Shown piece by piece: positions 23,550-64,000 of a stretch of DNA of 64,000 bases (the first letter of the stretch is position 1; each line of letters begins with the position of its first letter). The position numbers and the translations under genes were made by a program. The notes under the pieces were generated by a model, which did not search any database, was not told where the DNA came from, and was given only the letters and a program-made list of their open reading frames with translations. The stretch lies in assembly GCA_041660605.1 (NCBI GenBank), contig JBAZWB010000001.1, positions 814,503 through 878,502 of the forward strand, given 5' to 3'. The DNA is from Patescibacteria group bacterium (GTDB lineage: Bacteria > Patescibacteriota > Patescibacteriia > UBA10025 > JAHIVO01).

Positions 23550-23626
23550 GTTTATCCGCTCTGTCACATCGACCGAAGTGGAGATGTCTCTAAGATAATT
23601 ACATACTACCTTTTTGGTATTTAAAA

Positions 23627-23956: not shown

Positions 23957-24342
23957 TTTATGTTTGTTGAAGACAACTGTCATAGGTGCTGGTGGAGCTA
24001 CCTCCCTCTTAGCAAAGGTTATTGATTTAATCTTGCCTTTATGCGGCCCCTCCTTGGCAGGAGGGGTGGACTCCTCCCCAAATAGCATTGATGGTATTGC
24101 CGGCGTCTTTCTCCCCTCCTTGTTCAAGGAGGGGAAATGCCTCAGTGCCAGCAATAGCAGAATGATAGTGGTGAGGGGTGGTGTATTTAAGTGGCACAAC
24201 GCATAAAAACCTTCCGCGGATTGCCGGGGAAGGCTAACGTTTCAATAATATCACTTTTCAGCACCAAGTCAACTCAACCTCTGTAAATTTAAAAAACTAC
24301 ATTGACAGGTATCCCCTTTTTCCGCTAAACTAATACAATTTA

Positions 24343-39528: not shown

Positions 39529-40347
39529 TTATTTATCATTAAGCCAGTTTATCACTTCCTTTGATAAAATATTTATCCTTTTTTCTCCGCGCAGGGTATG
39601 CCCGCCATCCTTGATTTCCACCAGCTTTTTTGGCGAGGTTAAAATATTGTAAATACTTCTAAACCCATCCTTGTCCAAAATTTTTTCTTTGGTTCCATAG
39701 ACCACCAATGTCGGACATTTAATTTTTTTAAGATAATAGTCAGGCTTATATTTAATCCCCTCTTTATAAAAATTGTATCCAATTCTCGCCCACCGCCGGT
39801 AAGTATGAGTATATCTCCACATCCAGCCTAGCGCTTTGTAAAGCGGCATAAAAACTCCGTTTTCTATTTCCCGTCGTAAATTATACACCGGTCCCTGCAA
39901 TATCAGACGATTGATGCGCTTATCGCTGGCAGTAATAATATAGCTGGCCATAGCGCCGATGGAATATCCAGCGAGGATACAATGAGTATGGCCGGTTTTT
40001 TTCAGCGCGTAATTTATTACCTCCCTAATGTCATTGATATAACCGCCAACAGTAAAATTCAGCATTGACCCGTCACTCCCCCCAATGCTATTGGTGGAAG
40101 TAAAACGATAGGTGTCATATCCTTCCCGAGCTAAAGCTTCGGCTACTAGTTTGATTTGCAGTTGTTGGTGAGTCACCCCCAACCCGTGGCAGAGTACTAC
40201 CGTTTGTCCGGTTGAACCCACCTGCCATTCCCTGATCCCGCGGATAGTCAGACCTTTTTTGTTTTTTATGGCAATTTTCTGCTGCATATGATAATTTTTT
40301 AGACAAATACCTACGTGTATAGCGGTAAGCCCTCGCTTACCGCCCAA
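39529..40347 (-). CDS. Alpha/beta-fold hydrolase
   Basis: HGLG oxyanion region, GYSIG nucleophile elbow, C-terminal GGH. Confidence 0.7.
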   Translation of the reverse strand: MGGKRGLTAIHVGICLKNYHMQQKIAIKNKKGLTIRGIREWQVGSTGQTVVLCHGLGVTHQQLQIKLVAEALAREGYDTYRFTSTNSIGGSDGSMLNFTVGGYINDIREVINYALKKTGHTHCILAGYSIGAMASYIITASDKRINRLILQGPVYNLRREIENGVFMPLYKALGWMWRYTHTYRRWARIGYNFYKEGIKYKPDYYLKKIKCPTLVVYGTKEKILDKDGFRSIYNILTSPKKLVEIKDGGHTLRGEKRINILSKEVINWLNDK

Positions 40348-41257: not shown

Positions 41258-41396
41258 AATGTAATTAAAAAATTAATGCTCATTGCGTCACAGTTTAAAA
41301 CCCCCATATGGGTAGCGGCAAGCCCTCGCTTGCCGCCCGGGAATAAGACGAAAGCGAGAGATTTCGTCTGTCTCTTTTATAATTTAAAATCTTTTA

Positions 41397-47052: not shown

Positions 47053-47226
47053 ACTTGGCTTAATTCTACCATTTCAAATCGTTGTGGAAAAGCCTATTGA
47101 CTAATATATTCATTTATTGTAATATCAACGGTTAATTATAAAAAAAGCTTTATTTCCGCGCCAAACTGTGTTATTATTTCCCTTAGTCAACGGGGATTAG
47201 ACAATTACCCCGACCGCCTTGACTGC

Positions 47227-47300
47227 CGGGGTATGGCGCAGTTGGCTAGCGCGCATCGTTCGGGACGATGAGGCCGCCGGTTCAAGTCCGGCTACCCCGA
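47227..47300 (+). tRNA. tRNA-Pro (anticodon CGG)
   Basis: Cloverleaf built by hand: acceptor CGGGGTA/TACCCCG; D-arm GCGC-AGTTGGCTA-GCGC; anticodon arm CATCG-TTCGGGA-CGATG (U33, C34 G35 G36, G37); T-arm GCCGG-TTCAAGT-CCGGC; discriminator A. CCA is not encoded. Confidence 0.85.
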
Positions 47301-47597
47301 TAGTCAAGGCGGCCCACAAAGCTTGCGCGTCCACCTCTAGTGGAAGGTCCCGGCGTACCCCGTCGTATGACGGGGACCCCGACCAATTTAATTTAATGTT
47401 ATGAAAAAAATATTGCGCGTAATAACTTTATGCCCAGTGTTTTCTTCAGAAACCCTCTTCAAACCCTAAACCTTTTAACCTGAAGGAGCCCACATGCTCT
47501 TTATGAGTCCTCACTCTCCACCGCGTTAATTGATCGCAGTTTGAACATTCACGTTCACCCCTTTCTCACTAAAATTGTGTAAAAACGCGGAGGGAAA

Positions 47598-50112: not shown

Positions 50113-50309
50113 ACGGGACTTACGAAAATAGCTTAGGGCCATCTATCCAAATCGACCGATTTTGGTTTTCCCTCCTCTGCCGATGATAACCGGCTTGACT
50201 TGTGAAGATTGACCCGAACTGTTAGCCAGCGATTGCCGTGAAATGATATTGTCCCCACGGGGCATATGTAACCTCCTTGCCTGGCGAAATAGAATTCAAT
50301 AATCGCCTT

Positions 50310-51848
50310 TTATGCTGCGGCTGACGATCTCCTGACAGAAGTAACGTTTGATGCTTTCCTGACAGAACGAACAATGATATGGTTTCGACCCGGACCGGTG
50401 CCGATCAAGACGATAGGAATGCCGAGACGCTGTTCAAGTTTTTTGACAAACTGCCGAGTTTTCAGCGGTAGTTTTTTCCATTCAGTGATTCCGGAAATGT
50501 CCCTGCGCCAGCCTTCCCAATACTCATAAATCACTTCTACGCGAGCCAGATCATCGGTATCCGGCATTTCACCGCGTTTTAGCCTCTTCCCGTCGAGCTT
50601 ATACCCGACCACCACCGGGATAATCTTGAGACCAGACAGCATGTCCAGACGCGTTAAAGCGAAATACTTCGGACCATTGATGCGGATGGCGTAGTGCAGC
50701 CACATCAAGTCCGGGAAACCGACACTGCGGCCACGACCGGTCGTTGCTCCCTTTTCATAGCCCAATACCTGGAAGTACTGGCTCCAATCTTCGAGTCTTG
50801 CCTTACCCGAATTGATCAGCGCCAGTTTTTCCGCCAGGAATCGGGCGCGTGCCAAGGTGTCTTTGAAAAGGTCCGGATGTTCCAGTGCGAAAACCTCACT
50901 CTGAATCCGACCCCAGATCTCCGATGGGAATGGACCGGCACCAACGCGGGTCGGCAGGGCTTTCATCACCATGAGTACCATGGCTTTAGCAAATGCCGAC
51001 AATGGCAGGCCAGTGCCGATCGGCGCGCCTGCGGCTACCGAATGGCCAGCGGAAACATACGGCCAGGTGCCCAGATCAATGTCCAGTCCGGGGGCTTGCG
51101 CGCCTTCAAACAGAATGTGCAGTCCGGCAGTATAGGCTCCCGACAGTTCAAACGCCGTGTCAGTGACCATATTCCTGATCTTTTTCGCATCCTTCAGGAG
51201 CGCGAGTTCAACATGGGTAGGTAATGGGATATCTTTCCGCCTGACGATTCCCAGCTTAACCATCTGGTCAAAATCCGGCTTTAGTGCCCGATAAAGGCGC
51301 CGCAGCCGATTTCGCAATACCTTAGGATCCTGGAAAAGGTGATGTACTTGCAGTCCGACACGAAGTACATTAAAGCCAGACAACGGTCCGATGGCTTTGC
51401 CAGTAGTTCCCACCTTTCCACTCCCCGCGGAATACTCAAGCCATTGCTCGAATAATCGGTGCCAAGGAGTCCAGACCGGCGAATATTTATCCACCCAGAT
51501 AGGCGGTAAATTCTTGCCCAATGCTCCTTTGGCATCCTTGATTTCAGCGAGAAACCGCCTGATGTCGAAAAATACCCCCCGACCCAGAATACACCTGATC
51601 CCTTGAGCGATAGCACAGGGAATCAAGTGCCCAACAAACCTCCTGCCGTCGGGTGTCTGCAAAGTATGACCAGCGCCCGCGCCACCGCTGTACCGCACTG
51701 CCAAGTCATAGAGACACGACAGTAAGTCAACGATCTTTCCTTTTCCTTCATCACCCCAGTATGTTCCGGTGATGATTAACATCTGTATGGTTGCAAATAG
51801 CCTTAGTAACCGAGCATGCAACCGCTTCTCTTGTGCTGTGAGCCTCAT
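50310..51848 (-). CDS. purA: Adenylosuccinate synthetase
   Basis: P-loop GTYWGDEGKGKIVD and GAGHT. The likely true start is the internal Met (MLIITGT...) about 66 nt inside the ORF. Carries a short C-terminal extension. Confidence 0.85.
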   Translation of the reverse strand: MRLTAQEKRLHARLLRLFATIQMLIITGTYWGDEGKGKIVDLLSCLYDLAVRYSGGAGAGHTLQTPDGRRFVGHLIPCAIAQGIRCILGRGVFFDIRRFLAEIKDAKGALGKNLPPIWVDKYSPVWTPWHRLFEQWLEYSAGSGKVGTTGKAIGPLSGFNVLRVGLQVHHLFQDPKVLRNRLRRLYRALKPDFDQMVKLGIVRRKDIPLPTHVELALLKDAKKIRNMVTDTAFELSGAYTAGLHILFEGAQAPGLDIDLGTWPYVSAGHSVAAGAPIGTGLPLSAFAKAMVLMVMKALPTRVGAGPFPSEIWGRIQSEVFALEHPDLFKDTLARARFLAEKLALINSGKARLEDWSQYFQVLGYEKGATTGRGRSVGFPDLMWLHYAIRINGPKYFALTRLDMLSGLKIIPVVVGYKLDGKRLKRGEMPDTDDLARVEVIYEYWEGWRRDISGITEWKKLPLKTRQFVKKLEQRLGIPIVLIGTGPGRNHIIVRSVRKASNVTSVRRSSAAA

Positions 51849-52003
51849 TGGACTCCTCCTTCCTGATTTTCAGTGAAATTCCAAATAAAAAGTCAAAGTA
51901 CCAGTTAATTAAATTACTCTATCACTAAACTCCGATTTCCGTCAATTTACGCTTATCCGCACTCTTTACTTTTTGCGAAATTAGCTTATAATATCTCTAT
52001 TAT

Positions 52004-53107
52004 ATGAAGTTAGCCATTGCAATAATATTACTGATAGTTTTTATAATAATATTCGGCGGACACGCCGTGTTATTTTTTTCCTGGGTTTGGCTGTTTGGGA
52101 TAACCGGCAGTGCAGTAAAAGAAGTACTGCTGATCGCCCTCGGTATTCTGGCTTTCAGCACTATTGCCAGCATCATCATCGTACACTTTATTGAAAACCA
52201 TTTCACCAGTTATTATTATATAATATCCTCAATTTGGCTCGGCTTGGGCTGGTATGTATTGCTGGCGACGATAGCGTCGTTAGTGCTGGCTTCTGTTTTT
52301 CCAGAAATTAACACTGCAATAACCGCCAGCGTGCTTCTTGGGCTGGCTGCTTTATATACAGTGTATGGCATTATTAACGCCCAAAAAATCAGAGTGAAGA
52401 AAATCGAAATTATCATACCCAATCTGCCTCCGTCCTGGGAAAATAAAAAAGCCGTGCAGATTTCAGACGTGCATCTGGGAGTATTCTGCCACCAGGGTTT
52501 TATGAAAAAAATTGTCAGATTAATTAATGAGCAATCCCCTGCTTTAGTTTTTATCACCGGAGACCTATTTGACGGCGCGGGGAAGAAACTTAACCACCTG
52601 GCGGATCCCATAAAAAATATTCTGGCGCCGGAAGGCATTTATTATATCACTGGCAACCACGAAACCTATGTCAGCCTGGAAAATTCGCTGGCTGCCGTAC
52701 GGCTGACTCCGGCAAGAATATTGAATGACGAAATTACGGAATTAAACGGTATGCAATTATTGGGCATCAGCTATCCTAAGCCTGGAGAGAAAAAAGATTT
52801 TGGCAATATTTTTAAAAAAATCAATCCTGCCAAGCCCAGCATTGTGCTATATCATGAGCCGAAAGTCGCAGTCGTGGAGCTGGCAAAAGCCGCCGGCGCG
52901 AGTTTGATGCTGTCCGGGCACACGCATGTCGGCCAGCTCTGGCCTTTTGCAGCTATCACTCGCGCATTATACAAAAAAAGGGACTGGGGTTTGTCCCGCG
53001 AGGGTGCTTTTAATATATATACTTCCAGCGGCGCCGGCACCTGGGGTCCGCCCATGCGCACCGGCAATTATCCGGAAATCGTTTCCATCACTTTTAAAAG
53101 CAGGTAG
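52004..53107 (+). CDS. Membrane-anchored calcineurin-like metallophosphoesterase
   Basis: Four or five N-terminal TM helices. Phosphoesterase motifs VQISDVHLG, FITGDLFDG, ITGNHE, LSGHTHVGQ. TATAAT at 51987-51992, 11 nt before the ATG, so nearly leaderless. Confidence 0.75.
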   Translation: MKLAIAIILLIVFIIIFGGHAVLFFSWVWLFGITGSAVKEVLLIALGILAFSTIASIIIVHFIENHFTSYYYIISSIWLGLGWYVLLATIASLVLASVFPEINTAITASVLLGLAALYTVYGIINAQKIRVKKIEIIIPNLPPSWENKKAVQISDVHLGVFCHQGFMKKIVRLINEQSPALVFITGDLFDGAGKKLNHLADPIKNILAPEGIYYITGNHETYVSLENSLAAVRLTPARILNDEITELNGMQLLGISYPKPGEKKDFGNIFKKINPAKPSIVLYHEPKVAVVELAKAAGASLMLSGHTHVGQLWPFAAITRALYKKRDWGLSREGAFNIYTSSGAGTWGPPMRTGNYPEIVSITFKSR

Positions 53108-53229
53108 TTATTACAAATTGCCAACTACCTTGAACGGAGCGCACCCTTGAGAGGGTACGCTCGGAGTTTATGAATAACGCTAATTATTAGTATACTAACT
53201 ACTAACCAACTAGTGGCTAACAAACTAAC

Positions 53230-54807
53230 CTACTCCCACTCCACCGTCCCGGGCGGTTTTGACGTGATATCGTAAATTACCCGGTTAATCTCCTTAACCT
53301 CATTGGTAATCCTGGAAGAAATTTTACTGAGCAATTCATAAGGTAGGCGCGCCCAGTCAGCCGTCATAAAATCTTTAGTCGTCACCGCGCGCAAAATTAT
53401 CGGATAACCGTAAGTGCGCGAATCCCCCTGCACGCCCACGGAACGTATGGCCGGTAAAACCGTAAAATACTGCTGGACTGTTTGCCCCCAGCCGGCTTTT
53501 TCTATTTCCTCGCGGGCGATCCAGTCTGCCTGGCGCACAATATTCAAGCGTTCCTCAGTCACTTCTCCTATTATCCTGACTGCCAGTCCCGGACCGGGAA
53601 AAGGCTGGCGTTCCGTCACTTCTGCTGGCAGGCCCAGGAGGCGGCCGACTTTCCTGACCTCATCTTTATAAAGCTCGCGAAACGGTTCAATGAGCTTGAA
53701 ACCGAATTTTTTCGGCAGGCCGCCGACATTATGATGGGATTTAATGACCGCCGCGGTTTTGCCGACGCTGACGCCGGAAGTAATTGCATCGGTATAAAGC
53801 GTACCCTGTACCAGCCATTTTACCCCGCCAATCTTTTTAGCTTCTCGTTCAAATATTCTGATGAAAAGATTTCCGATTATTTTCCGCTTTTTTTCCGGAT
53901 CAACTACGCCTTTAAGTTTTGCAAGGAAATCGCGCTGGGCATTGATAATTTTCAAATTCGCTTTTTGGTACGAACGAAAGGTTTTTTTAACCTGCTCAGT
54001 CTCTCCCTGCCGCATCAGGCCGGTATCAACGTATATGCACGTTAATTGCTTGCCAATTGCTTTATTTACAATAGTAGCAGCCACGGATGAATCAACTCCA
54101 CCGGAAAGCGCGCAAACCACCTTATCATTTGCTACTTTATCTCTAATGTTAATAATAGACGCTTTAACAAAATCTCGCATTGACCAGGTGCGTTGGGCGC
54201 CGGTCAAACTAACAAAATTTTCCAGTATTTTTAAACCATTTATAGTATGTACAACTTCCGGATGAAACTGCAGGCCAAATAAATTTTTCTGCTCATTGCT
54301 AATTGCGGCCTGACGGCAGTTCTTGGAACTGGCTTGATTTTTAAAGCCTGCCGGCAACTTTGAAACCTGGTCTCTATGCGACATCCAGGTCATTTGTTTG
54401 GTTTTCAGGCCTTTAAAAAGCTTACTGTTTTTAATAGATATTTCAATCGGGCCGTACTCCCGCTTTTCACCCACCACTACCTTGCCGCCGAGCATATGCG
54501 CCATCAGCTGCAGTCCATAGCAAATACCCAATATCGGAATACCCAGATTAAAAAGCTCCTTATTGATCAATAAGGTATCCTGCCGGGAAATATCGCGCGG
54601 GCCGCCGGAAAGGATGATGCCTTTGGCTGACCGCAATTTGTCCAACGGGAAATTTATCGGCACTAATTCTGAATATACTCCCAGCTCCCTGATCCGCCGG
54701 GTAATCAAATGAGAGTACTGGGAGCCGAAGTCTAGTACGTAAATAATGTCTTGCATAATTTTATTTGACAAAAGCTGCCTCAAAAGCCCATTTGGTGCAC
54801 TGCTCAA
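53230..54807 (-). CDS. guaA: GMP synthase (glutamine-hydrolysing)
   Basis: GATase active site ICYGLQLM, PP-loop CALSGGVDSSVAA, C-terminal GTVEWE. The likely start is the internal MQDIIYVLDFGSQY at about 54756. Confidence 0.9.
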   Translation of the reverse strand: MSSAPNGLLRQLLSNKIMQDIIYVLDFGSQYSHLITRRIRELGVYSELVPINFPLDKLRSAKGIILSGGPRDISRQDTLLINKELFNLGIPILGICYGLQLMAHMLGGKVVVGEKREYGPIEISIKNSKLFKGLKTKQMTWMSHRDQVSKLPAGFKNQASSKNCRQAAISNEQKNLFGLQFHPEVVHTINGLKILENFVSLTGAQRTWSMRDFVKASIINIRDKVANDKVVCALSGGVDSSVAATIVNKAIGKQLTCIYVDTGLMRQGETEQVKKTFRSYQKANLKIINAQRDFLAKLKGVVDPEKKRKIIGNLFIRIFEREAKKIGGVKWLVQGTLYTDAITSGVSVGKTAAVIKSHHNVGGLPKKFGFKLIEPFRELYKDEVRKVGRLLGLPAEVTERQPFPGPGLAVRIIGEVTEERLNIVRQADWIAREEIEKAGWGQTVQQYFTVLPAIRSVGVQGDSRTYGYPIILRAVTTKDFMTADWARLPYELLSKISSRITNEVKEINRVIYDITSKPPGTVEWE

Positions 54808-55750
54808 TCTGCGCCATATTCATAATGCCGGTCTTCATTAAAAATTCCTGCTCTTTAATGACATTGGTGCAGTACATCTCCGGGCCGTCTGTATTAATGG
54901 TAAATTTAATCTTGTTATCCAGATATGCTTTAACGATATTTTCAAATTCATTAATATTTTTCACCACGCTATTGCGCAAATTCGAGGTCGGACAGGTTTC
55001 CAGGACAATATTATTTGCCACCACCTCGGACATCAGTCTTTCGTCCTGGATACATAAAAAACCGTGGCCGATTCGGTCAGGCTTTATCTCGCTGACCACG
55101 TAATTCATCTCCTCTAAATTCCCTTCTTCACCGGTATGCAGAGTAATGCCCAGTCCTGCTTCGCGCGCCATCCGGAAAAGCTTGGCATGCTCCTTGATGG
55201 AAAATGATTTTCTCTGCGGACCGGCGATATCTACGCCGACAATGCCGTTCTCTTTATATTTTATCGCTTTCTGGACAATTATTTCGTTCTGTTCGTAATC
55301 CAGCGTACGGTCCATCATTAAAATTATCCCAGCCTTTACCTGCGGATACTCCAAAGTCGCTTTTTCCAGCCCCCACAATGAAGACATGATAATGTGATCA
55401 AGGTCTCTTTCCCCGCCGCGATTACGGAACATGGGATTGAACCGCAGCTCCTGGATGATCAGGTTGCATTTCCTGAATCCTCCGCCGATGACGCTGCGCA
55501 CTGATTCTTCAATCGTGTCCGGAGAAGACTGGATAAGTTCTGTCCAGTAAAAAAAATTATTATGCATTTCATCCAATGATTTGTTCTTCTCCTCGCCGGT
55601 CATGGTAATCATATCTTCAAAAGCCCAGTAATCTTTGCTCGGCAGCTTTATGCCGTGCCGGTGCGCAATGGACCATAAAATTGCCGGATCAACTGCCGAA
55701 CCCAGATGGGCGTGCAATTCTGCTTGTGGCTTATTTGTTGATTTTGGCAT
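54761..55750 (-). CDS. Adenosine/AMP deaminase family protein
   Basis: N-terminal ELHAHLGSAV metal-binding motif. HTGEEG and TINTDGP blocks. Confidence 0.65.
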   Translation of the reverse strand: MPKSTNKPQAELHAHLGSAVDPAILWSIAHRHGIKLPSKDYWAFEDMITMTGEEKNKSLDEMHNNFFYWTELIQSSPDTIEESVRSVIGGGFRKCNLIIQELRFNPMFRNRGGERDLDHIIMSSLWGLEKATLEYPQVKAGIILMMDRTLDYEQNEIIVQKAIKYKENGIVGVDIAGPQRKSFSIKEHAKLFRMAREAGLGITLHTGEEGNLEEMNYVVSEIKPDRIGHGFLCIQDERLMSEVVANNIVLETCPTSNLRNSVVKNINEFENIVKAYLDNKIKFTINTDGPEMYCTNVIKEQEFLMKTGIMNMAQIEQCTKWAFEAAFVK

Positions 55751-55772
55751 ATGAAAATAAAAATATTAAACT

Positions 55773-56834
55773 TTAATAATTCGGGGCTTTTTTGCTGATC
55801 ATGACGGTATGCGGATGCGATTCCTTCAGGCTGGCGCTGGTAATCCTGATAAACCTGGCCTGCCTGGGCAATTCGCCTATCTTATGAGCACCCACATATC
55901 CCATGCCACTTTTCAGTCCGCCGACCGCCTGCCAGATGATTTCTTTGACCGGGCCTTTGTATGGTATCAGGCCTTCAACTCCCTCTGGGACGTATTTAGT
56001 TGCGCCTTTCTGGAAATACCTGTCAGATGACTTACCGCCGGACATGGCGCCAAGGCTGCCCATGCCGCGGTACTCCTTGTATAATTTACCGTTCAAACGG
56101 ACTAGTTTGCCCGGCGCTTCTTTGGCGCCGGCCAGCATTGAACCCAGCATGACAGTTGCAGCTCCGGCCGCCAGGGCTTTCACGATATCGCCGGAATATT
56201 TGATGCCGCCGTCGGCAATAACTGGAATATTTTTTTTCTGGGCGACTGAGACAACTTCGGAAATCGCGGTTAACTGAGGTACGCCAATGCCGGCCACTAC
56301 CCGCGTGGTGCAGATAGAACCAGGTCCGATCCCGACTTTCAGGGCATCGGCAATTGTTAAATAAACTTTGGCTGCCTCTTTAGTAGCAATGTTGCCGATT
56401 ACCAGTTGTGCTTTGATTGATTTCCTGATTAATCTGGCATCTCGGATAATTTTCGTATGGTGAGCGTGGGCGCAGTCTATAAAGATGGCAACGGCGCCGG
56501 CCTTATATAATGCCGCGGCTCTTTCTATATCATGAGGCCCCACAGCGGCGCCAACTTTGACTCCTGATTTTTTAGCTTTTTTGACCATCCCAACCTGCTC
56601 ACTGATACTGCAATTCCTGTGCAGGACCGCCAGGCCGCCTAATTTTCCCAAGGCAATAGCCATTGAGGCATTGCTGACTGTATCCATGGCAGCGGAGAGT
56701 ATGGGTATTTCCAGTTGGATTTTATTTGTTAATTTAGCGGCCAGGTCAATTTCCCTGCGGTTGACCGAAGACAAACGCGGTTCAAGCAAAACATCATCAA
56801 ATGTTAAGCCGGTTCCAATTTCGCTAAATTTCAT
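55773..56834 (-). CDS. IMP dehydrogenase / GMP reductase family protein lacking the CBS subdomain
   Basis: Catalytic loop GIGPGSICTTR. 353 aa with no CBS insert. Confidence 0.8.
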   Translation of the reverse strand: MKFSEIGTGLTFDDVLLEPRLSSVNRREIDLAAKLTNKIQLEIPILSAAMDTVSNASMAIALGKLGGLAVLHRNCSISEQVGMVKKAKKSGVKVGAAVGPHDIERAAALYKAGAVAIFIDCAHAHHTKIIRDARLIRKSIKAQLVIGNIATKEAAKVYLTIADALKVGIGPGSICTTRVVAGIGVPQLTAISEVVSVAQKKNIPVIADGGIKYSGDIVKALAAGAATVMLGSMLAGAKEAPGKLVRLNGKLYKEYRGMGSLGAMSGGKSSDRYFQKGATKYVPEGVEGLIPYKGPVKEIIWQAVGGLKSGMGYVGAHKIGELPRQARFIRITSASLKESHPHTVMISKKAPNY

Positions 56835-56907
56835 ATTTAATAGTTCAAATTATATTTTGCTTTACATTATAACACAAAACTTATACTGTGCTAAGAATAT
56901 GCCACAT

Positions 56908-57882
56908 CTAGTATTTTATGTCAACAATATTTTCCATAGTCCAGCGTTCCGCTGGCTTGGACAAATCCAGCTTGGCGTACTTTGGCTGCAGGATAAAATC
57001 CTGGTAGCCGCTCTCTTCACTTTTTCCCCCATTGGAAAAAATGCTCAGCAGCCGCTGGTCAAACAACAGTTTATATCCGCTGGCTACGTATTCGTGGGAG
57101 CGTACTAATATTTTTCCGCCGATGGCTTGCATGAAATTATCGAAAATCGTCCGGCCAAAAAGATAATTCCCTCCCCGCTTATAATTGTACATTATATGAT
57201 TGATTTCCTCAGTCGGATCATTCCAGCGTATTTCCATCATATCTTCGTCATCCTTTATGTCTTTCAGGGATTTTATCGGGCTGACTGGTATGCCTCCGTG
57301 TACGGCTACTGCACCGTTTCTGGTAATCAGTAGGCTGGGCAGGTGCTCAAAAAAATTATTTACGCGCTGAAAGATATATTGGCCGCGGTCATACCCGTAT
57401 TGCTTGATGCAGGAGCCCAGGAAGCCATAATGCTGGCCCATGTCTATTTCTTCATGATTGCCGCGCAGCAGGTAAACGTAATTGGGGTGCTTAAGTTTCA
57501 AATTCAATACCAGATCTAATGTTTTGATATCGGCTTTTCCGCGGTTGGTATAATCGCCAAGGAAGACCAGATAAACCGCCTCTCCTTTTTCGCTCAACTG
57601 AAAAAAACGTTCCTGCTCTAGAATCTTTTGTACGGAAACCGAATCTCCGTGTATATCTCCGATGAATATGGCAGTGCCCTGATCGGGCAGATACACATAT
57701 TGATAATGGCAGAAAGCTTCCCGGGAATTTATCAAGGTGATCTTCTCGCGCATCTTGCCTTTCGATAGCTTGCGCTCCTGCCGGATAATCTGCTCAACGC
57801 CAATTACCAATTGGGAAAAATCCCGCCAGGTTTTGTCGGACTTGTTAACGGTTAATTTTTCTTGTTCTACCTCCATAATCAA
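56908..57882 (-). CDS. PPP-family metallophosphoesterase (Ser/Thr phosphatase / ApaH-like)
   Basis: GDIHGD, GDYTNRG (GDxVDRG-like), LRGNHE. Confidence 0.7.
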   Translation of the reverse strand: MIMEVEQEKLTVNKSDKTWRDFSQLVIGVEQIIRQERKLSKGKMREKITLINSREAFCHYQYVYLPDQGTAIFIGDIHGDSVSVQKILEQERFFQLSEKGEAVYLVFLGDYTNRGKADIKTLDLVLNLKLKHPNYVYLLRGNHEEIDMGQHYGFLGSCIKQYGYDRGQYIFQRVNNFFEHLPSLLITRNGAVAVHGGIPVSPIKSLKDIKDDEDMMEIRWNDPTEEINHIMYNYKRGGNYLFGRTIFDNFMQAIGGKILVRSHEYVASGYKLLFDQRLLSIFSNGGKSEESGYQDFILQPKYAKLDLSKPAERWTMENIVDIKY

Positions 57883-58763
57883 TCAAATATTACTTCCTGT
57901 TTTTTTGGTAAAATTCCTACCTGGTAGGATGTTTGCGAAGCCGGCAACTCTCCGTCTAATTGGGCCTGAAGTGGTTTGACGGATTGAATGTTCAGCTGAT
58001 GGCAACGGCTCATATGCACTTCCGGCAAATTCGTATGGTGGCCGCGGATGAATTTTGGCAGTTTTCGTAAAATATAGGCGCGACTGGCTTTATCCACCAA
58101 ACAGACATCAAACAATCCGTCATCCATTTTTGCATCAGGAGCTACTTTGAATCCCCCGCCATACGTCGTACCGTTGCACACGGAAATGAATAATATTTTT
58201 TGTTCGACAGTATTACGATCGTCAAATTTCATTTTGACTTCCTGACAGCGGTAAAAAACCAGAGTCCGCAGTACCGCCAATAAATAAGCCATGAAGCCGT
58301 TAGTATAACGCATGGTCTTGCGTGCCGCCAGCGCCGTTTCGCCGTCAAAGCCGACACCAAAACCGTTGATAAAATAATCCGTTTCGTTAACTACGCCGAC
58401 ATCAATCCATTTGGTTTTTGCTTCTCGTAAAATCCGCAGATCCCTTTTCAAATTTCTTTTATAGCCAAGCTGATAGGAAAAATCATTTCCCGAGCCGATC
58501 GGCAAAATTCCTAAAATTGCCGGTGAAATTGCCAGACCGTTAATAATTTCATTAACCGTACCGTCGCCTCCGACGGCAACCAAAATCTCATACTTATTTG
58601 ATGAGTCTTTGGCAATCTGCGTGGCCTGTTTTGGGCGCTGCGTGATGACCGTATCGAAATCAACGTCTTCACTGGCGAAAAAACTACTAATCTCCGATAA
58701 AATAGACAAATGCTTCCCTTTGCCAGCCACGGGGTTAATTATGAAAAGATACTTTTTTTTCAT
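57879..58763 (-). CDS. Diacylglycerol-kinase catalytic-domain lipid kinase (YegS/BmrU-like)
   Basis: LVAVGGDGTVNEIINGL, the DAGK_cat signature. Confidence 0.8.
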   Translation of the reverse strand: MKKKYLFIINPVAGKGKHLSILSEISSFFASEDVDFDTVITQRPKQATQIAKDSSNKYEILVAVGGDGTVNEIINGLAISPAILGILPIGSGNDFSYQLGYKRNLKRDLRILREAKTKWIDVGVVNETDYFINGFGVGFDGETALAARKTMRYTNGFMAYLLAVLRTLVFYRCQEVKMKFDDRNTVEQKILFISVCNGTTYGGGFKVAPDAKMDDGLFDVCLVDKASRAYILRKLPKFIRGHHTNLPEVHMSRCHQLNIQSVKPLQAQLDGELPASQTSYQVGILPKKQEVIFD

Positions 58764-58857
58764 ATTGCTTTAGACTAATTATACTTTAATTTGGATAATA
58801 AAAAAAGGCTGCCTGCGGCAAAAAGCCTGCGCCTGGAATCAGGCATATTTCATGCTA

Positions 58858-59580
58858 TTATGATCTCTCCGGTATATTCACGCAACTCTGCAAATCAAAT
58901 TCTCCGACCCTGACGCGTTCAAGCTCATACAAATATCCTCCGACACCCAGCCGCTCACCCAAATCCCTGGCCAATGAACGTATATATACTCCCGGACCGG
59001 TGACTGCTTTTATTTTCAAAAAAGGCCACTGGTATTCGATAATGCTGATCTCCTTAATATAGACTTCCCTGGCTTTTAGCTGAATATTTTCACCCTGCCT
59101 GACGCGCCGGTGAGCCGGGCGGCCTTTGATTTTTACGGAGCAATAAACAGGCGGTATCTGCTTAATATGTCCGGTAAAATCCTCTAAAATATTTTTTATC
59201 TGGCCGATACCGGGTAAATTATTTTCTTCTGTATTTTTAATCTGCCCCTGCCGGTCATCCGTATCGCTGACTCCGCCGAATTTTATCAGAGCGATGTATT
59301 CTTTTTCCTTTTTTACCTCTAGCATTAATTTTTTCGTCGCTTCCCTGCCAACGCCCACGACTAAAACTCCGCTGGCCAGCGGATCAAGCGTACCGGCATG
59401 ACCGATTCTTTTTTCCCCGGTAATTTTCCTCAGCTTATCGATCATGTCATGAGATGTCGGGCCGGTAGGTTTGAAAATACTAAAAATACCATGTTTTATC
59501 TCACGCATAGCGGTATAAAAAATTAAACCTTGATTTTCAGCCTGATCTTCACTTCCTTTACTAAATCTTCCAGCGCCCAC
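58858..59580 (-). CDS. truB: tRNA pseudouridine(55) synthase
   Basis: GHAGTLDPLASGVLVVGVG with the catalytic Asp. The likely start is the internal Met at about 59508. Confidence 0.85.
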   Translation of the reverse strand: MGAGRFSKGSEDQAENQGLIFYTAMREIKHGIFSIFKPTGPTSHDMIDKLRKITGEKRIGHAGTLDPLASGVLVVGVGREATKKLMLEVKKEKEYIALIKFGGVSDTDDRQGQIKNTEENNLPGIGQIKNILEDFTGHIKQIPPVYCSVKIKGRPAHRRVRQGENIQLKAREVYIKEISIIEYQWPFLKIKAVTGPGVYIRSLARDLGERLGVGGYLYELERVRVGEFDLQSCVNIPERS

Positions 59581-59906
59581 TTTGCCTTGGCCATGTAAAC
59601 GCAGTCGTCGTATTTCAAAAGCTGGGCAATTTCTTTTTTATCCACGTTTGTCCAGAGTATCAATGGCACATTCAAGCCCCATTCGCTTGATCTTATTTTA
59701 GACAGTACAGTCAAACCATCCATTTTCGGCATGACGATGTCCAGCAAAATTAGATCGGGTCGTTCTTTCATGGCTATCTCCAGGCCTAGCTGGCCGTTTT
59801 TCGCCTTGAAGACACGGAAATTTTCCCTGCTAAACGCCTTATCCAGAAGCCAGCGCAATGAAGTATCATCATCAATTATTAAGATAGTTTTTTCATTTTT
59901 TTGCAT
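59523..59906 (-). CDS. Single-domain response regulator (CheY-like receiver)
   Basis: ILIIDDD...KPDLILLDIVMPKMDG...ILWT; phospho-acceptor Asp in LLDIVMP. No output domain. Confidence 0.75.
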   Translation of the reverse strand: MQKNEKTILIIDDDTSLRWLLDKAFSRENFRVFKAKNGQLGLEIAMKERPDLILLDIVMPKMDGLTVLSKIRSSEWGLNVPLILWTNVDKKEIAQLLKYDDCVYMAKAKWALEDLVKEVKIRLKIKV

Positions 59907-59911
59907 GCTGG

Positions 59912-60262
59912 CTATTTTAATTTATTTACTAGCTTCATTACTTCTATATAATTCTTACGAATCATTTCCGGTTGGCGGTAGCTTTTTGAAAATTCCGCCA
60001 GCCAATCCATGGCTTTGATGATGGTCTCCCTGGTCGGTGCATCAAAATCACCGCCGCTTTCCCTGAAGGCCTTCCTGACGATTCCTTCAATATTCGCTTT
60101 TGTATATTTTTCTACCCCTTTTTTGCCTAGATCCTGCGTTAGCTCTCCCAAAGATTTCCTGGTTGCCTCCCCGTGGGCATGCTCGAAACAGACAACAATG
60201 GCATCCCTTACTTTTTCAGGAGTAATAGTTTCTTCCAAATCTACTCCAAAAATTATTGCCAT
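59912..60262 (-). CDS. Hypothetical small protein, predicted helical
   Basis: 116-aa ORF lying exactly between two receiver-domain genes. Confidence 0.4.
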   Translation of the reverse strand: MAIIFGVDLEETITPEKVRDAIVVCFEHAHGEATRKSLGELTQDLGKKGVEKYTKANIEGIVRKAFRESGGDFDAPTRETIIKAMDWLAEFSKSYRQPEMIRKNYIEVMKLVNKLK

Positions 60263-60303
60263 ACAATTTATATTCCTAATTACCCTTGCTAACTTTTTAT
60301 ACG

Positions 60304-60684
60304 TTAGACTAACTGCAGCTTTTCTTTCACTTTTTTAACTACATCATTTAAATGGCACTGAGTTTTACTCAGCATTTCCACTCTACCGGCATCGACTGCC
60401 CTCTGCACCCGCGGATCATCAGCGTAATTTGTCAGTATTATTACCGGAATAGATTTGCCCCATGACTGCCCCTGCAATTGATCCAGCATATCAATCCCAT
60501 GCATTTTCGGCATGACGATGTCCAGTAATATTAAATCCGGCTTTTCCAGCTTGGCCAGACCCAAGCCAACTTCGCCGTTTTCTGCTTCAAGGATATTCAA
60601 GTCAGTACCAGAAAAAGCCTTTTTTAGTGCTTCCCGAATGGACTTTTCGTCTTCAATCAATAAGACTTTTTTGGAATTGCTCAT
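60304..60684 (-). CDS. Single-domain response regulator (CheY-like receiver), paralog of 59523..59906
   Basis: VLLIEDE...KPDLILLDIVMPKMHG...IILTN. Confidence 0.75.
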   Translation of the reverse strand: MSNSKKVLLIEDEKSIREALKKAFSGTDLNILEAENGEVGLGLAKLEKPDLILLDIVMPKMHGIDMLDQLQGQSWGKSIPVIILTNYADDPRVQRAVDAGRVEMLSKTQCHLNDVVKKVKEKLQLV

Positions 60685-60792
60685 ATTTTATACCTTAATT
60701 TAGGCATATTTATTATATCTGCCTTTATAAAATATGTCTATTAAAAATCTCACAGGTAATTAAAACGCGCTGCGGTAAATTATTTTCCACAA

Positions 60793-60810
60793 AGCTGCGA
60801 GACCTGGACT
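60793..60810. repeat. 18-nt direct repeat of the tRNA-Gln 3' end (T-arm, acceptor and discriminator)
   Basis: ctgcgagacctggactcg at 60793-60810 is identical to 60900-60917. Confidence 0.6.
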
Positions 60811-60899
60811 CGCCCTGTACCACAAGGGTACAGGGCGCCATGAACCGAACTTTGTTCTGGTTCATGGCGAACTAATAATAACGAAAATTCCCTGCAAAT

Positions 60900-60970
60900 C
60901 TGCGAGACCTGGACTCGAACCAGGATTAGCGGATTCAGAGTCCGCCGTCCTACCATTAGACGATCTCGCA
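60900..60970 (-). tRNA. tRNA-Gln (anticodon CUG)
   Basis: Reverse complement folds as: acceptor TGCGAGA/TCTCGCA; D-arm GTCT-AATGGTA-GGAC; anticodon arm GCGGA-CTCTGAA-TCCGC (U33, C34 U35 G36, A37); T-arm CCTGG-TTCGAGT-CCAGG; discriminator G. Confidence 0.8.
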
Positions 60971-60982
60971 GATTTGCAGGGA

Positions 60983-61011
60983 ATTATAAATATTCTTTAA
61001 CTTATAAACAA
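60983..61011 (-). promoter_or_regulatory. Candidate promoter for tRNA-Gln
   Basis: On the minus strand: TTGTTT, 17-nt spacer, TATAAT. The -10 box ends about 12 nt upstream of the tRNA 5' end. Confidence 0.4.
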
Positions 61012-61043
61012 CCAATTTTTTAAGCAGCTTCCGGTTATGCTAA

Positions 61044-61065
61044 CAAAAAATTGCCTATCAGGCAA
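61044..61065 (-). terminator. Rho-independent terminator of dnaX
   Basis: On the minus strand: TTGCCT-gat-AGGCAA followed by T7. Confidence 0.65.
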
Positions 61066-61086
61066 GCTTGTAACCTCATTATTCTG

Positions 61087-62709
61087 CTACGCTTCTTCTT
61101 CCACAATTTCACCGCCAAAGACGTTCAAAGCCTGATTCCAGGCTTCGCTTTCCCCTGCCTCCTGGCTGCTGCCTTTCAGAAATTCATGCTCAAGCTTCTG
61201 AAAAGCGCTCTCTGAGACAACTTCGGTTTTTATTTTCAATGCATGCCTGGTAATATTTTCAATTACTCCGCCTAAAATGTTTTTTGCTTCCGGCTCCGCC
61301 ACCTGCTCGGCGTGAAATTTATACTGGAAAGCGATGCAAATGGCTTGATTATCGACAGATTTAGGCAATCCGACTTTCAGGGATAGGGCCAGCGAATAAT
61401 TCTTGCCGCGCAAGGCTTGCAATATTTCCAGCCAAACCGACTTCAGTATTTCCATGTTCATCGTTGATTTTGCGCTCATTTTACGGGGCACCGGCGGCTT
61501 ATCGTGTTTTGCCTTTGGCAATGCTGAACCGTCAGCGGGCGGCTTCGTTCCCCCGCCATCCTTAGGTTTATTGGCGTCCTGACTGCCTTCAATCTCCGTT
61601 TTCTTCGAGCGATCGAGCTCCACTATGGCTAATTCCAGTGGCAGCTGAATTATCGTGGTATATTTAAATTCCCGAGATTTTTCCACAAATTTCTCAATCA
61701 CGCTGATTAGCCAGTCAACGGTAATGCTATTCATGCTCTTTTTAATTTCATTTATATTGTCAGTGTTCAGATCCAGACGCGTGGCTGTCAGAGTATTGCT
61801 GGTAATCTTCATCAGCAGAACATAACGGAAAAATTCAATCAAATCCCTAGTAAATTCCTGGATATCAACTCCCTCGTCTATCAACTTATTTATTAAAGCC
61901 AGGTTTGCCGGTATGTCATTTTGCACCAAGTTTTGAAAAAATTCCAAAACTAAAGTATTATCAGACCGCGGGATGACCAACGAGGCTTTTTCTTCCGTTA
62001 TTTCTTTTTCGCCGAGAGACATCAGCTGATTGAGCATTACTTCGGCGTCCCTGACAGAACCCTCGGATCTCTGGGCAATATTCCGTAAAATGGACTCCTC
62101 AATGTTGATCTTTTCTTTTTCCGTGACTGTTTTCAGTCTTTTTACCAGATCATCAGGACTGACTCTCTTGAAATCAAAACGCTGGCAGCGGGAAATAATG
62201 GTTTCCGGCACGCGGTGTATTTCAGTAGTCGCCAGAATAAAAATTACATACTCCGGCGGCTCCTCAAGGGTTTTTAGCAATGCGTTAAAAGAGGAAACCG
62301 ACAGCATATGCACCTCATCTATGATAAAAACTTTAAATTTCGCGCGTTGCGGAGTAAAACGGGAATTCTCAATAATATTTTCCCGTACATTATCAACGCC
62401 GGTGTGCGAAGCGGCGTCGATTTCTATCAGGTCCATGGAGTTCCCGGCAGTGAAGTCTTTGCAAAAATCACAGGCATTGCAGGGTTCGGCGCCTTTCCTA
62501 TTGGTGCAATTGACAGCTTTGGCTAACAGACGGGCAGTGGTAGTCTTGCCCACGCCGCGCGGACCGGAAAAAAGATAAGCATGACTGACGCGCCCCTGTT
62601 CTATCTCATTCTCCAATGTGATGCGTATGGCATTCTGGCCGATCAGGTCTTTGAAGGTCTGCGGCCGATATTTTCGATAAATAACTTGAGACATAAAAAA
62701 ATCCACCAA
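61087..62709 (-). CDS. dnaX: DNA polymerase III subunit gamma/tau
   Basis: GPRGVGKTTTARLLAKAVNC (Walker A), zinc module C-x-x-C...C-x-x-C, FIIDEVHMLS, and the SRC motif (TIISRCQRFDF). Confidence 0.9.
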   Translation of the reverse strand: MVDFFMSQVIYRKYRPQTFKDLIGQNAIRITLENEIEQGRVSHAYLFSGPRGVGKTTTARLLAKAVNCTNRKGAEPCNACDFCKDFTAGNSMDLIEIDAASHTGVDNVRENIIENSRFTPQRAKFKVFIIDEVHMLSVSSFNALLKTLEEPPEYVIFILATTEIHRVPETIISRCQRFDFKRVSPDDLVKRLKTVTEKEKINIEESILRNIAQRSEGSVRDAEVMLNQLMSLGEKEITEEKASLVIPRSDNTLVLEFFQNLVQNDIPANLALINKLIDEGVDIQEFTRDLIEFFRYVLLMKITSNTLTATRLDLNTDNINEIKKSMNSITVDWLISVIEKFVEKSREFKYTTIIQLPLELAIVELDRSKKTEIEGSQDANKPKDGGGTKPPADGSALPKAKHDKPPVPRKMSAKSTMNMEILKSVWLEILQALRGKNYSLALSLKVGLPKSVDNQAICIAFQYKFHAEQVAEPEAKNILGGVIENITRHALKIKTEVVSESAFQKLEHEFLKGSSQEAGESEAWNQALNVFGGEIVEEEA

Positions 62710-62762
62710 TTATAGGTGACTATATTTTATAATAACCGTTCAGATTAAGCAAATCTCAATTG

Positions 62763-63404
62763 CTAGCTCAGGTCCTCAATCTCTTCCACGTTTTCCGGAG
62801 TGCCCTTATCCTGCTTCAGTTCCTCTTTAATATCTGTATTTTCCCCCTCTTTTGAGCTTTCGCCGGCCTTAATAATATTTTCTACTGCAGCCCATTCTGT
62901 TTCTTTTTCCTTGGGCACCAATATCACGACCTCGTCTCCCGATTCGCCTTTAAAATAAGTGATGCTGGCCAGTAAAACTTTATAGGCCTTATCCCCCACT
63001 AATACTCTGTACTCGTCCGTGATGTCATCTTTGGCCAATAAGCCGACCAAACGGTTGCGGTCAATCGGTCCGATTTGCTTATACATGAAAGATCCGTCTT
63101 CCTTGATAGTCAGCTTCAGGGTATCGCCGGCAACTAATTTTGATTTTGAAGCGTAATTGGCGGGTATGCTATATTGCTTGCCGTCCGGGCCGATCATGTT
63201 CTGGCCGTCAAAAACGCCTTCAACAATTTTATCGGCTCCCTCGTTCTTCGCCTCGGCCAACTCTTTGGCCATATGTGCGATTTCCGGATCCTCAGATTCT
63301 TTGCCACCGGTTATCTGATTTAAAAGCTGCCGTGCGCTCTCCAGAGCGACATGGGCGGTTTCAATCAATTTTTTTATTTGTCCAATTTGGTTTTGTTTTG
63401 CCAT
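62763..63404 (-). CDS. Hypothetical protein with acidic C-terminus
   Basis: 213-aa ORF. No recognisable motif. Confidence 0.4.
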   Translation of the reverse strand: MAKQNQIGQIKKLIETAHVALESARQLLNQITGGKESEDPEIAHMAKELAEAKNEGADKIVEGVFDGQNMIGPDGKQYSIPANYASKSKLVAGDTLKLTIKEDGSFMYKQIGPIDRNRLVGLLAKDDITDEYRVLVGDKAYKVLLASITYFKGESGDEVVILVPKEKETEWAAVENIIKAGESSKEGENTDIKEELKQDKGTPENVEEIEDLS

Positions 63405-63539
63405 ATTTTATTTTCCTTTTATTTTAATCTTTATGTTTTCTGCTATTTACTATTTGTATTTATTTGCCTTTTTGGGTATTTGTCTTTATTTTTGTCTCTT
63501 TTTTTAGTCTACACAAAGCAAAATGAATAGTCAATATGG

Positions 63540-63998
63540 TCACTTTTTAATATACTTGTAAATTGGTATATGCTTGGTGCTCGGCCTGTCCGTCTCGACA
63601 GGCTGCCAATTTGGCATGGAGAAGCTGTATGAAATTATCCGGGTGCCTGGCCGGAGTTCACGCTCAAATTTCGGACCTAGCTTCTTCATGGCTTTTGGCG
63701 TTAAAAAACAAAAAATGACCGTGGCCTGGCTTAGATCGCGGGATAAAAAATCGGCTCCCCTTATTTCCACTCTCTGGTTTAATCCCAGAAACCGTATCCT
63801 GATTTTTGACCAGATATAAGGAATAAAAGAAATTTCATAACCAACCACGATTTTCGCCGAGGAATTATTGGCAATAGCGACTATAACCCGGCCATCTCCG
63901 GAACCTAAATCGTAAACCACATCGCCTGGCTGGATTCCGGCCAAATTTAAAATACGTTGAATGTCCTTTTTAAAAACAGGCAGCCAGGGTGCGGCCAC
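63540..63998 (-). CDS. Class I SAM-dependent methyltransferase
   Basis: VVYDLGSGDGRVIV, the glycine-rich SAM motif I. The ORF reaches the window edge, so the N-terminus may be truncated. Confidence 0.55.
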   Translation of the reverse strand: MAAPWLPVFKKDIQRILNLAGIQPGDVVYDLGSGDGRVIVAIANNSSAKIVVGYEISFIPYIWSKIRIRFLGLNQRVEIRGADFLSRDLSQATVIFCFLTPKAMKKLGPKFERELRPGTRIISYSFSMPNWQPVETDRPSTKHIPIYKYIKK

Positions 63999-64000
63999 CC

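Follow-up and report, generated by a model that had tools for sequence, protein, structure and literature searches.

A continuous leader-trailer helix at tRNA-Gln(CTG) of a Patescibacteria genome, its relatives, and a possible RNA-level role

In bacterial tRNA maturation as it is taught, RNase P acts on a single-stranded leader. Long pairing between the two flanks of a mature RNA is established for rRNA: the 16S and 23S transcripts of bacteria and archaea form leader-trailer (LT) helices, in which complementary segments flank the mature structured RNA over at least about two turns and show compensatory change. The 16S LT helix requires at least 17 bp, and the roles proposed for it are the joining of the ends for folding and the provision of a site for a double-strand nuclease (PMC11404451). 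The pairings known between leader and 3' end of pre-tRNAs and of mascRNA are short. In E. coli, as few as two pairs between the leader and the 3' RCCA of pre-tRNA lower the kcat/Km of RNase P, and the extension needs unwinding (PMC9433436). Efficient processing of MALAT1 mascRNA depends on leader-trailer pairing that lengthens the acceptor stem and leaves an A bulged ahead of the cleavage site (PMC8457004). Partial tRNA copies are known as well, as scars of integration. Here we describe a two-turn helix of this general kind at the tRNA-Gln(CTG) gene of a Patescibacteria group bacterium (assembly GCA_041660605.1, contig JBAZWB010000001.1, positions 814,503 to 878,502); this stretch of 64,000 nt is called the window below, and its coordinates are counted from its first nucleotide. 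The literature covered, which does not include a preprint on Patescibacteria tRNA group I introns, describes neither a two-turn LT helix on a bacterial tRNA nor one tRNA gene nested in another.

An earlier note on this sequence had placed the tRNA within an exact 15-bp inverted repeat that continues the acceptor stem as a 22-bp helix, with the discriminator paired to the last base of the leader, and direct sequence comparison bears out both statements. The note had missed the minus-strand orientation of the tRNA, the like flanks of the second tRNA, the partial copy of the tRNA 3' end downstream and the repeated rebuilding of tRNA genes in this lineage. AATTCCCTGCAAATC (60886-60900) and GATTTGCAGGGAATT (60971-60985) are exact reverse complements at 15/15 positions, and these arms are the only two exact copies in the window. 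The tRNA comprises 71 nt from U1 (60970) to the discriminator G73 (60900), its gene does not encode CCA, and the trailer proper, which follows G73, reads AUUUGCAGGGAAUU (60899-60886). Because C-1 pairs with G73, the acceptor stem is coaxial with the flanks, and 7 + 15 pairs form one uninterrupted 22-bp helix around an enclosed segment of 57 nt. ARAGORN absorbs one additional pair into the tRNA, which explains why its bounds (60899-60971) are one pair wider than those of Rfam. The helix dominates the minimum free energy (MFE) fold of the region, with z = -10.6 compared with shuffles. All positions from -1 to -15 are paired in the predicted precursor, so that it lacks the single-stranded leader of a canonical RNase P substrate; the note's remark to this effect holds, two pairs being already enough to lower the kcat/Km of the E. 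coli enzyme (PMC9433436).

The second tRNA of the window, tRNA-Pro(CGG), is flanked in a similar way (Table 1). G-2 and U74 form a wobble pair, C-1 and A73 are unpaired, and beyond this single unpaired position at the acceptor stem the in-register run amounts to 12 pairs (11 Watson-Crick and one G·U).

Compared with rRNA LT helices, the tRNA helix shares the complementary flanks, the length and the compensatory change. It is not a strict member of that family, however, since the rRNA helices enclose rRNA and this one encloses a 71-nt tRNA. It also differs from them in being coaxial with the acceptor stem, in burying the RNase P site and in its occurrence, which is limited to a minority of lineages. 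As in the E. coli pre-tRNA, the pairing extends the acceptor stem, here by 12-17 nt instead of about two pairs. Archaeal disrupted tRNA genes (split, permuted or multi-intron) also have long GC-rich complementary sequences next to the tRNA pieces, together with bulge-helix-bulge motifs. Such a motif has two 3-nt bulges separated by a 4-bp helix, whereas the duplex in the window is continuous and the other cases have mismatches of 1-2 nt. Unlike the archaeal genes, the one in the window is bacterial and unbroken, and its layout does not call for a splicing endonuclease.

Recurrence of the helix was assessed in 160 loci fetched around DnaX relatives and in additional loci fetched around PurB relatives (designated by L and a number). 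tRNA ends were placed from the T-loop, position -n was scored for pairing with position 72+n, and a helix was called when the in-register run had at least 7 pairs. Among 147 distinct tRNAs, 14 pass this threshold, namely 11/60 tRNA-Gln and 3/6 tRNA-Pro, compared with 0/52 tRNA-Ser, the latter mostly from loci of other phyla. The tRNA-Lys of L162 has an interrupted helix with 16 of the first 19 flank positions paired. In the mismatched-flank control, leaders were combined with trailers taken from different tRNAs; 0.43% of these combinations reach 7 or more pairs in a row and 0.023% reach 10 or more. Together with the uniqueness of the arms in the window, this control rules out a chance origin of the tRNA-Gln repeat. 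The length of the helix including the acceptor stem is 19-24 bp in 14/14 cases (mean 21.6). All 14 cases, as well as the interrupted tRNA-Lys, belong to Patescibacteria or Patescibacteria-like loci. The helix is probably best read as a lineage trait of a Patescibacteria clade (ABY1/Kerfeldbacteria-like) at tRNA-Gln, tRNA-Pro and, in interrupted form, tRNA-Lys. As for the 3' terminus, CCA is encoded by 18/60 tRNA-Gln genes and absent from the remainder; none of these 18 has a helix (Fisher p = 0.046, earlier set), and the L163 tRNA-Pro and L162 tRNA-Lys have encoded CCA together with a helix.

The best DnaX and PurB relatives of the window are all Patescibacteria metagenome-assembled genomes, and a 'Candidatus Kerfeldbacteria' assembly is among those with the best conserved synteny. 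The order dnaX, then tRNA-Gln(CTG), is widely conserved in Patescibacteria (L001-L160). A DnaX scan of metagenomes returned no relative above 57% identity, and the neighbouring response regulator, looked up by exact match, led to no contig but one that is 100% identical to the window. Window positions 50304-64000 are 100% identical to Logan assembly contig L161 (run SRR18595301). The last five PurB look-ups provided one syntenic locus, L168, where a tRNA-Pro is present, and, outside synteny, four further tRNAs; tRNAs are absent from L167, L170, L171 and L172, and that of L169 lies at a contig edge.

Conservation of the pairing was quantified in nine genomes chosen by phylogeny and synteny and not by the presence of a helix: the window, the DnaX clade (L001-L005) and the PurB-synteny loci L163, L164 and L168. 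The earlier note had suggested a comparison with orthologous loci. In this DnaX/PurB/synteny clade, 7/9 tRNA-Gln loci carry the helix with differing arms, which speaks for a real feature. Across the 14 LT pairs of the set, 81.7% of cells are standard pairs, compared with 40-49% in slid registers and 55% in column shuffles, a control without correction for phylogeny in which 0/500 shuffles reach the observed value. Changes on both sides are found at 13/14 LT pairs. Between sister genomes, double compensatory changes distinguish L003 from L005 (at -4/76, -9/81 and -10/82) and L164 from L168 (at -6/78 and -7/79). The leaders of the window and L001 are recognisably homologous (AATTCC..TGC), and each pairs with its own trailer, while the tRNA-Pro arms of the window, L163 and L164 have wholly different sequences in identical register. 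Protein identity within the clade has diverged to 40-60%. Many A·C mismatches cluster 2-4 nt from the cleavage site, and several helices have a mismatch 1-4 nt from it, a likeness to mascRNA with its bulged A.

By analogy with the rRNA processing stems, we suggest that the repeat provides the two arms of a pre-tRNA LT helix acting at the level of RNA, a reading to which we give about an even chance. It is favoured by the constant two-turn length, the confinement to one radiation, the occurrence at three tRNA identities and the persistence of pairing across deep divergence. According to the proposed scheme, the LT helix would first clamp the 5' and 3' ends of the tRNA, so that the right acceptor stem forms despite decoy fragments and strong hairpins in the transcript. 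The two-turn duplex would then be cut by a double-strand-specific nuclease, for which RNase III is the candidate, and the short stubs left over would melt. Finally, RNase P would trim the 5' end, the 3' end would be trimmed, and CCA would be added enzymatically. RNase III, RNase J and PNPase are among the few ribonucleases conserved across this radiation (PMC12641178). Since two additional pairs already impede RNase P, an extension of 12-17 nt would have to be cut or unwound beforehand, and because it is often perfect up to the cleavage site, unwinding by RNase P alone is unlikely to suffice.

The clamping step was modelled by folding the transcripts together with the decoy fragment. For the window, the correct acceptor stem is present in the MFE structure with the full helix and is lost in 20/20 folds with a shuffled trailer arm; the corresponding losses are 17/20 for L164 and 9/20 for L168, all of these being thermodynamic predictions with differences within the error of the method. 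A clamp role would explain the co-occurrence of helices and tRNA debris.

Several observations, however, speak against an RNA-level helix. Neither the window nor the fetched loci, which are small samples, yielded RNase III, and nothing convincing emerged from them for motifs of the RNase P protein or RNase Z. The transcribed length of the arm is a further concern. The earlier note had proposed a promoter for the tRNA, and its TTGTTT, 17-nt spacer and TATAAT are present as read; TTGTTT matches the -35 consensus TTGACA at 3/6 positions only, and the promoter scan made no call. The perfect TATAAT shares its last 3 nt with the start of the leader arm and ends 12 nt upstream of +1. Transcription from this box would include no more than ~5-7 nt of the arm, and the note's caveat that the RNA may contain only part of the repeat is legitimate. 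When the modelled leader is cut to 6 nt, folding no longer gains from it, and the 5' strand is predicted to pair with the downstream fragment, favoured by 2.9 kcal/mol. L017 likewise has a strong -10 box ending 12 nt before +1. At Patescibacteria tRNA-Gln loci in general, the end of a TATAAT-like box lies most commonly 10-13 nt before +1 (12/37 matches), a placement implying very short leaders of ~3-6 nt; many loci have the box elsewhere or have none, and leaderless transcription was considered and rejected, the distances showing no sharp peak. In favour of an RNA-level helix, some relatives that have no promoter-like box nearby, such as L051 and L003, have the leader arm in the dnaX 3' untranslated region, where it is transcribed if dnaX is; in others the arm lies well downstream of any such box. 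The helix is also labile: 49/60 tRNA-Gln loci are without it, including the closest DnaX relative, L002, and L004. Related sequences without structure can exceed the shuffle and covariation control used above. The mismatches G·U and A·C each occur 11 times in the helices. Selection in the tRNA sense should give an excess of G·U, and neutral decay of a DNA palindrome should give parity; as a strand test of RNA-level selection, the parity is uninformative or mildly contrary. Finally, helix-bearing genes often adjoin tRNA fragments or insertions, pointing to an origin at the DNA level.

These fragments take several forms. In L087 (Ga0209211_10016068, 4320-4510), an intact tRNA-Gln interrupts precisely the T-loop of a second, non-identical tRNA-Gln allele, of which positions 1-54 and 58-73 surround it; the paired flanks of the inner gene are 29 and 21 nt, and the helix spans from the inner acceptor stem to the outer T-loop. 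In L163 (11880-12150, minus strand), an outer tRNA-Pro is split into its positions 1-36 and 43-74; an identical but intact tRNA-Pro with a 10-bp LT helix lies between the two parts, bounded by two hairpins with the common stem CCCGCA/TGCGGG. L164 (11990-12400, minus strand) has positions 1-17 of an outer tRNA-Pro, TCCGCC..GGCGGA hairpins, a GIY-YIG open reading frame (ORF) and then an LT-helix tRNA-Pro, and its tRNA-Gln (2418-2780) is preceded by positions 1-34 of an identical copy. L168 (1637-1960) has three serial tRNA-Gln copies, of which the last alone is intact and carries the helix. In L163, L164 and L168, which are syntenic with the window, the partial copies are identical to the intact gene, with GC-rich hairpins between them. 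Altogether, partial copies upstream of or around the intact gene are present in L087, L001, L163 (Pro), L164 (Gln, Pro) and L168. According to a hand tally of Patescibacteria loci, fragments accompany ~8/17 tRNAs with a helix and 7/47 without; the same statistic over all tRNAs is confounded by tandem tRNA-Ser genes. No scar is detectable at the helix-bearing genes of L003, L013, L017, L051 and L123.

Degenerate tRNA-Gln copies in L001 (~11850-11875) and L168 (1650-1680) have the same 24-nt insert, CCCT[T/A]CGACTTCGCTCAGGGCAGG, immediately before the segment of the D-arm. The L168 copy has a D-arm clearly split by this insert, whose conservation across two divergent genomes is unexpectedly high for a dead gene.

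In L011, L095 and L136, the 3' part of tRNA-Gln lies within a long palindrome centred on a terminator-like hairpin. At 40-210 nt downstream, these loci show, in this order, the perfect palindrome, the T-arm and 3' end copied in inverted orientation, ~130 nt of GC-rich structured sequence and a direct 16-17-nt copy of the 3' end; L011 and L095 both carry CCACC(C/T)AGGACAG. The structured segment has no Rfam match in the three loci, and a permissive Rfam search with that of L095 gave sub-threshold noise only and no group I intron. In the window and eight related loci, Rfam reports only tRNA, and ARAGORN finds no tmRNA. A phage or plasmid origin of the flanks was considered and rejected, as a distant blastn comparison with phages gave a match of just 58 nt, confined to the body of the tRNA.

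Small GIY-YIG ORFs adjoin partially duplicated tRNA-Pro or tRNA-Gln genes in L164 (12084-12332), L168 (12118-12573) and L101 (~4400-4650), all on the minus strand; that of L101 separates an intact tRNA-Gln from a copy in which a hairpin takes the place of the D-arm. Their position suggests that turnover of tRNA genes may be driven by nucleases. Hairpins of the TCCGCC-loop-GGCGGA family, found in several Patescibacteria genomes, are enriched near tRNAs (6/14 copies within 400 nt of a tRNA, compared with ~6% of the sequence) and also at tRNA-fragment junctions. The rRNA-gene insertions of the Candidate Phyla Radiation, which comprise introns, RNase III-cleaved intervening sequences and ORFs of the LAGLIDADG and GIY-YIG types (PMC11270868), provide a close parallel: they belong to the same radiation and occupy loops of structured RNA genes, some with GIY-YIG ORFs and many short or unclassified. 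Here, in contrast, the hosts are tRNAs, the insert can hold a whole new tRNA, and the outer copy appears dead and not spliced.

The window itself contains a fragment of this type. The 18 nt from T-loop C56 to G73 of tRNA-Gln, CGAGTCCAGGUCUCGCAG, recur exactly at 60795-60812, 87 nt downstream of the gene, and the next 5 trailer nt (60790-60794) match at 4/5 positions. The segment 60790-60812 is thus a 23-nt direct repeat of 60895-60917 (96%, start-to-start distance 105 nt; 2 matches compared with 0.05 expected). Between the repeats lie ~82 nt with two hairpins and no ORF, and the neighbouring genes are dnaX and response regulators. Copies of a tRNA 3' part are also typical of attL/attR; however, no integrase or element accompanies the ~82 nt here. 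Moreover, integrase-type insertion yields neither 5' fragments nor fully nested tRNA copies, and relatives of the window have both. At tRNA-Pro, two copies of ACCCCGACC bracket the entire unit, and with the following A this 9-mer may represent a fragment of the tRNA-Pro 3' end including CCA. The 3' fragment of tRNA-Gln and the 9-nt repeat would be consistent with a rearrangement hot-spot. The segments around tRNA-Pro (47184-47215 and 47351-47384) also hold a further copy of the trailer motif, TAGTCAACGGGG, upstream of the tRNA, and a mini-hairpin CGGGGAT..TACCCCGACC that resembles a collapsed tRNA-Pro acceptor stem.

Among the alternatives to an RNA-level helix, the one that survives best is a DNA-level by-product with no role in RNA, which we regard as a real possibility but an unlikely one. 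A tRNA gene would be repeatedly broken, perhaps by a GIY-YIG nuclease, and repaired; a 3' end finishing at the discriminator would fold back by way of the acceptor-stem repeat and prime DNA synthesis on its own leader, so that a perfect complement of the leader is written right behind the tRNA, and the resulting palindrome would decay neutrally until the next such event. Such an origin would account for the precise start of the helix at -1:73 and for its perfection, which is complete in the window and L003 and extends over long parts of it in L013, L017 and L164, and the lack of a helix among the 18 CCA-encoding tRNA-Gln is as expected from overwriting of the trailer. The equal numbers of G·U and A·C, with mismatches mainly of the transition type, the loss of the helix in the closest relative and the overlap of the distal arm with the -10 box point the same way. 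So do the frequent scars, among them the 18-nt copy in the window and the partial copies in relatives, the fold-back palindromes covering the tRNA 3' part in L011, L095 and L136, and the GIY-YIG ORFs adjoining tRNAs in L101, L164 and L168. The fold-back step is a conjecture, however, and the by-product leaves unexplained both the narrow length range (19-24 bp, 14/14) and the confinement to Patescibacteria or Patescibacteria-like loci as against 0/52 tRNA-Ser. Neutral palindromes should also have vanished, unless very often regenerated, where 7/9 genomes retain the helix at 40-60% protein identity, and the five scar-free loci named above show no trace of the supposed event.

A more tentative and rather doubtful proposal, drawn from the nested loci, combines rearrangement with a role in RNA. 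The helix-flanked tRNA may be the payload of a so far undescribed mode of tRNA-gene renewal in Patescibacteria: a fresh unit would be written into the D-, anticodon- or T-loop of a resident of the same identity, sometimes with a GIY-YIG gene and GC-rich hairpins, giving nested and serially overwritten genes, and the complementary flanks would let the new copy fold and mature amid the debris.

Alternatively, the repeat could work at the DNA level, perhaps by forming a hairpin recognised at insertion, within a mobile or self-renewing cassette in which an arm-tRNA-arm unit, sometimes with GC-rich outer hairpins and a GIY-YIG gene, enters a loop of the resident tRNA gene of the same identity, destroys it and takes its place; this appears improbable. 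The nesting of tRNA-Gln in L087 and of tRNA-Pro between same-stem hairpins in L163, the series of elements at tRNA-Pro in L164, the single intact, helix-bearing copy of L168 and the enrichment of TCCGCC-loop-GGCGGA hairpins near tRNAs would suit such a unit. The arm sequences, however, are not conserved among loci, unlike transposon ends, spacers part the arms from the insertion boundaries in most nested cases, and inner and outer copies are usually identical, which suggests local copying and not transfer. The window likewise offers little to a cassette: its arms are single and without flanking target-site duplication, the region upstream of tRNA-Gln has no 5' remnant of an outer copy, and no GIY-YIG or recombinase gene was found near either tRNA by Pfam (50304-64000) and ORF inspection. 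Terminal inverted repeats of a transposon or miniature inverted-repeat transposable element were rejected, as the arms occur at a single locus in the window, differ among orthologues and lack a target-site duplication.

The last two alternatives are both very improbable; they suit only the window and break down at the majority of orthologous loci. An intrinsic terminator with the tRNA as its 'loop', ending transcription right after the tRNA, would suit UUCGUUAUUAUUAGUU after the trailer arm of the window and the U-runs after the arm in L017, L123, L162 and the tRNA-Gln of L163; however, no U-tract follows the arm in ~12/16 helix-bearing genes (including the window tRNA-Pro, L003, L051, L087, L164 and L168), a separate conventional terminator lies farther downstream in L003, L013 and L123, and the 57-nt enclosed segment is far above terminator loops, the scan having made no call. 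A role in double-stranded DNA at the promoter, as a cruciform, as a site for a dimeric protein over the -10 box tuning tRNA-Gln transcription or as a recombinase attachment site, would suit the 3-nt overlap of the leader arm with TATAAT and the 23-nt repeat of the tRNA 3' end, which resembles attL/attR scars (PMC9897764), but orthologue arms are wholly different with pairing kept, unlike the evolution of protein sites, the arms overlap no -10-like box in most relatives, and the ~82 nt between the direct repeats have no ORF and no integrase nearby.

Table 1. Coordinates of the features in the window and of hairpins of the TCCGCC-loop-GGCGGA family in related loci
Feature	Locus	Position	Strand	Evidence or remark
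tRNA-Gln(CTG)	window	60900-60970	minus	Rfam RF00005, 64.7 bits; ARAGORN; cloverleaf read from sequence
tRNA-Gln leader arm AAUUCCCUGCAAAUC (RNA sense), positions -15 to -1	window	60971-60985	minus	exact complement of 60886-60900; paired in MFE fold
tRNA-Gln trailer arm GAUUUGCAGGGAAUU (RNA sense), first base the discriminator G73	window	60886-60900	minus	exact complement of leader arm; MFE fold
U-rich tract UUCGUUAUUAUUAGUU directly after trailer arm	window	60870-60885	minus	sequence reading; no terminator call by scan
GC-rich hairpin downstream of tRNA-Gln with a perfect 11-bp stem, CGCCATGAACC / GGTTCATGGCG, and a 12-nt loop	window	60836-60869	minus	repeat search, fold
Second perfect 11-bp hairpin CGCCCTGTACC / GGTACAGGGCG, 5-nt loop	window	60811-60837	minus	stem equal to that of the first hairpin at 9/11 positions
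Partial copy of tRNA-Gln 3' end	window	60790-60812	minus	repeat search
Promoter-like motif: TTGTTT (61011-61006), 17-nt spacer, TATAAT (60988-60983)	window	60983-61011	minus	sequence reading; under promoter-scan threshold
Terminator-like hairpin and T-run, just past the dnaX stop codon	window	61041-61065	minus	terminator scan
dnaX	window	61087-62709		neighbour of tRNA-Gln
tRNA-Pro(CGG), sole other tRNA in the window, CCA not encoded	window	47227-47300	plus	ARAGORN, Rfam
tRNA-Pro leader arm CCGCCTTGACT, then GC	window	47214-47226	plus	inverted repeat of 20 nt, 90%; MFE fold
tRNA-Pro discriminator and trailer arm: A, T, AGTCAAGGCGG	window	47300-47312	plus	inverted repeat, MFE fold
ACCCCGACC, exact 9-nt direct repeat of 47207-47215	window	47376-47384	plus	repeat search
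TCCGCC-loop-GGCGGA hairpins, 6 copies	L001	e.g. 11669-11683, 11868-11882, 19703-19717
TCCGCC-loop-GGCGGA hairpin	L101	4343-4360
TCCGCC-loop-GGCGGA hairpin	L164	12361-12375
TCCGCC-loop-GGCGGA hairpin	L085	5594-5608

Two further groups of structured repeats lie elsewhere in the window. Repeated intergenic segments at 17857-18126 and 23510-24182 (63 nt at 94% and 183 nt at 85%) are located between the giant ORFs 12805-17835, 18208-23496 and 24433-27024, and each contains a perfect hairpin TCCCCTCCTT-loop-AAGGAGGGGA. Hairpins at 40322-40343 and 41315-41336 have the same loop and a compensatory change in the stem (GCGGTAAGC cctc GCTTACCGC and GCGGCAAGC cctc GCTTGCCGC). Both stand where a minus-strand gene begins, so the pair may represent one leader element common to the two genes.

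An RNase P site buried in a two-turn duplex would imply an added and ordered step in tRNA maturation, either double-strand cleavage or active unwinding, in organisms with a very small set of ribonucleases. An RNA-level helix would extend the leader-trailer principle from rRNA to tRNA and would offer a concrete substrate for RNase III function in uncultured bacteria. The nested and overwritten genes are a separate lead of higher potential interest: they suggest that tRNA genes may be battlegrounds for nucleases and small hairpin elements, paralleling the interrupted rRNA genes of this radiation, and such structures will mislead tRNA annotation and tRNA-gene counts in metagenome-assembled genomes.

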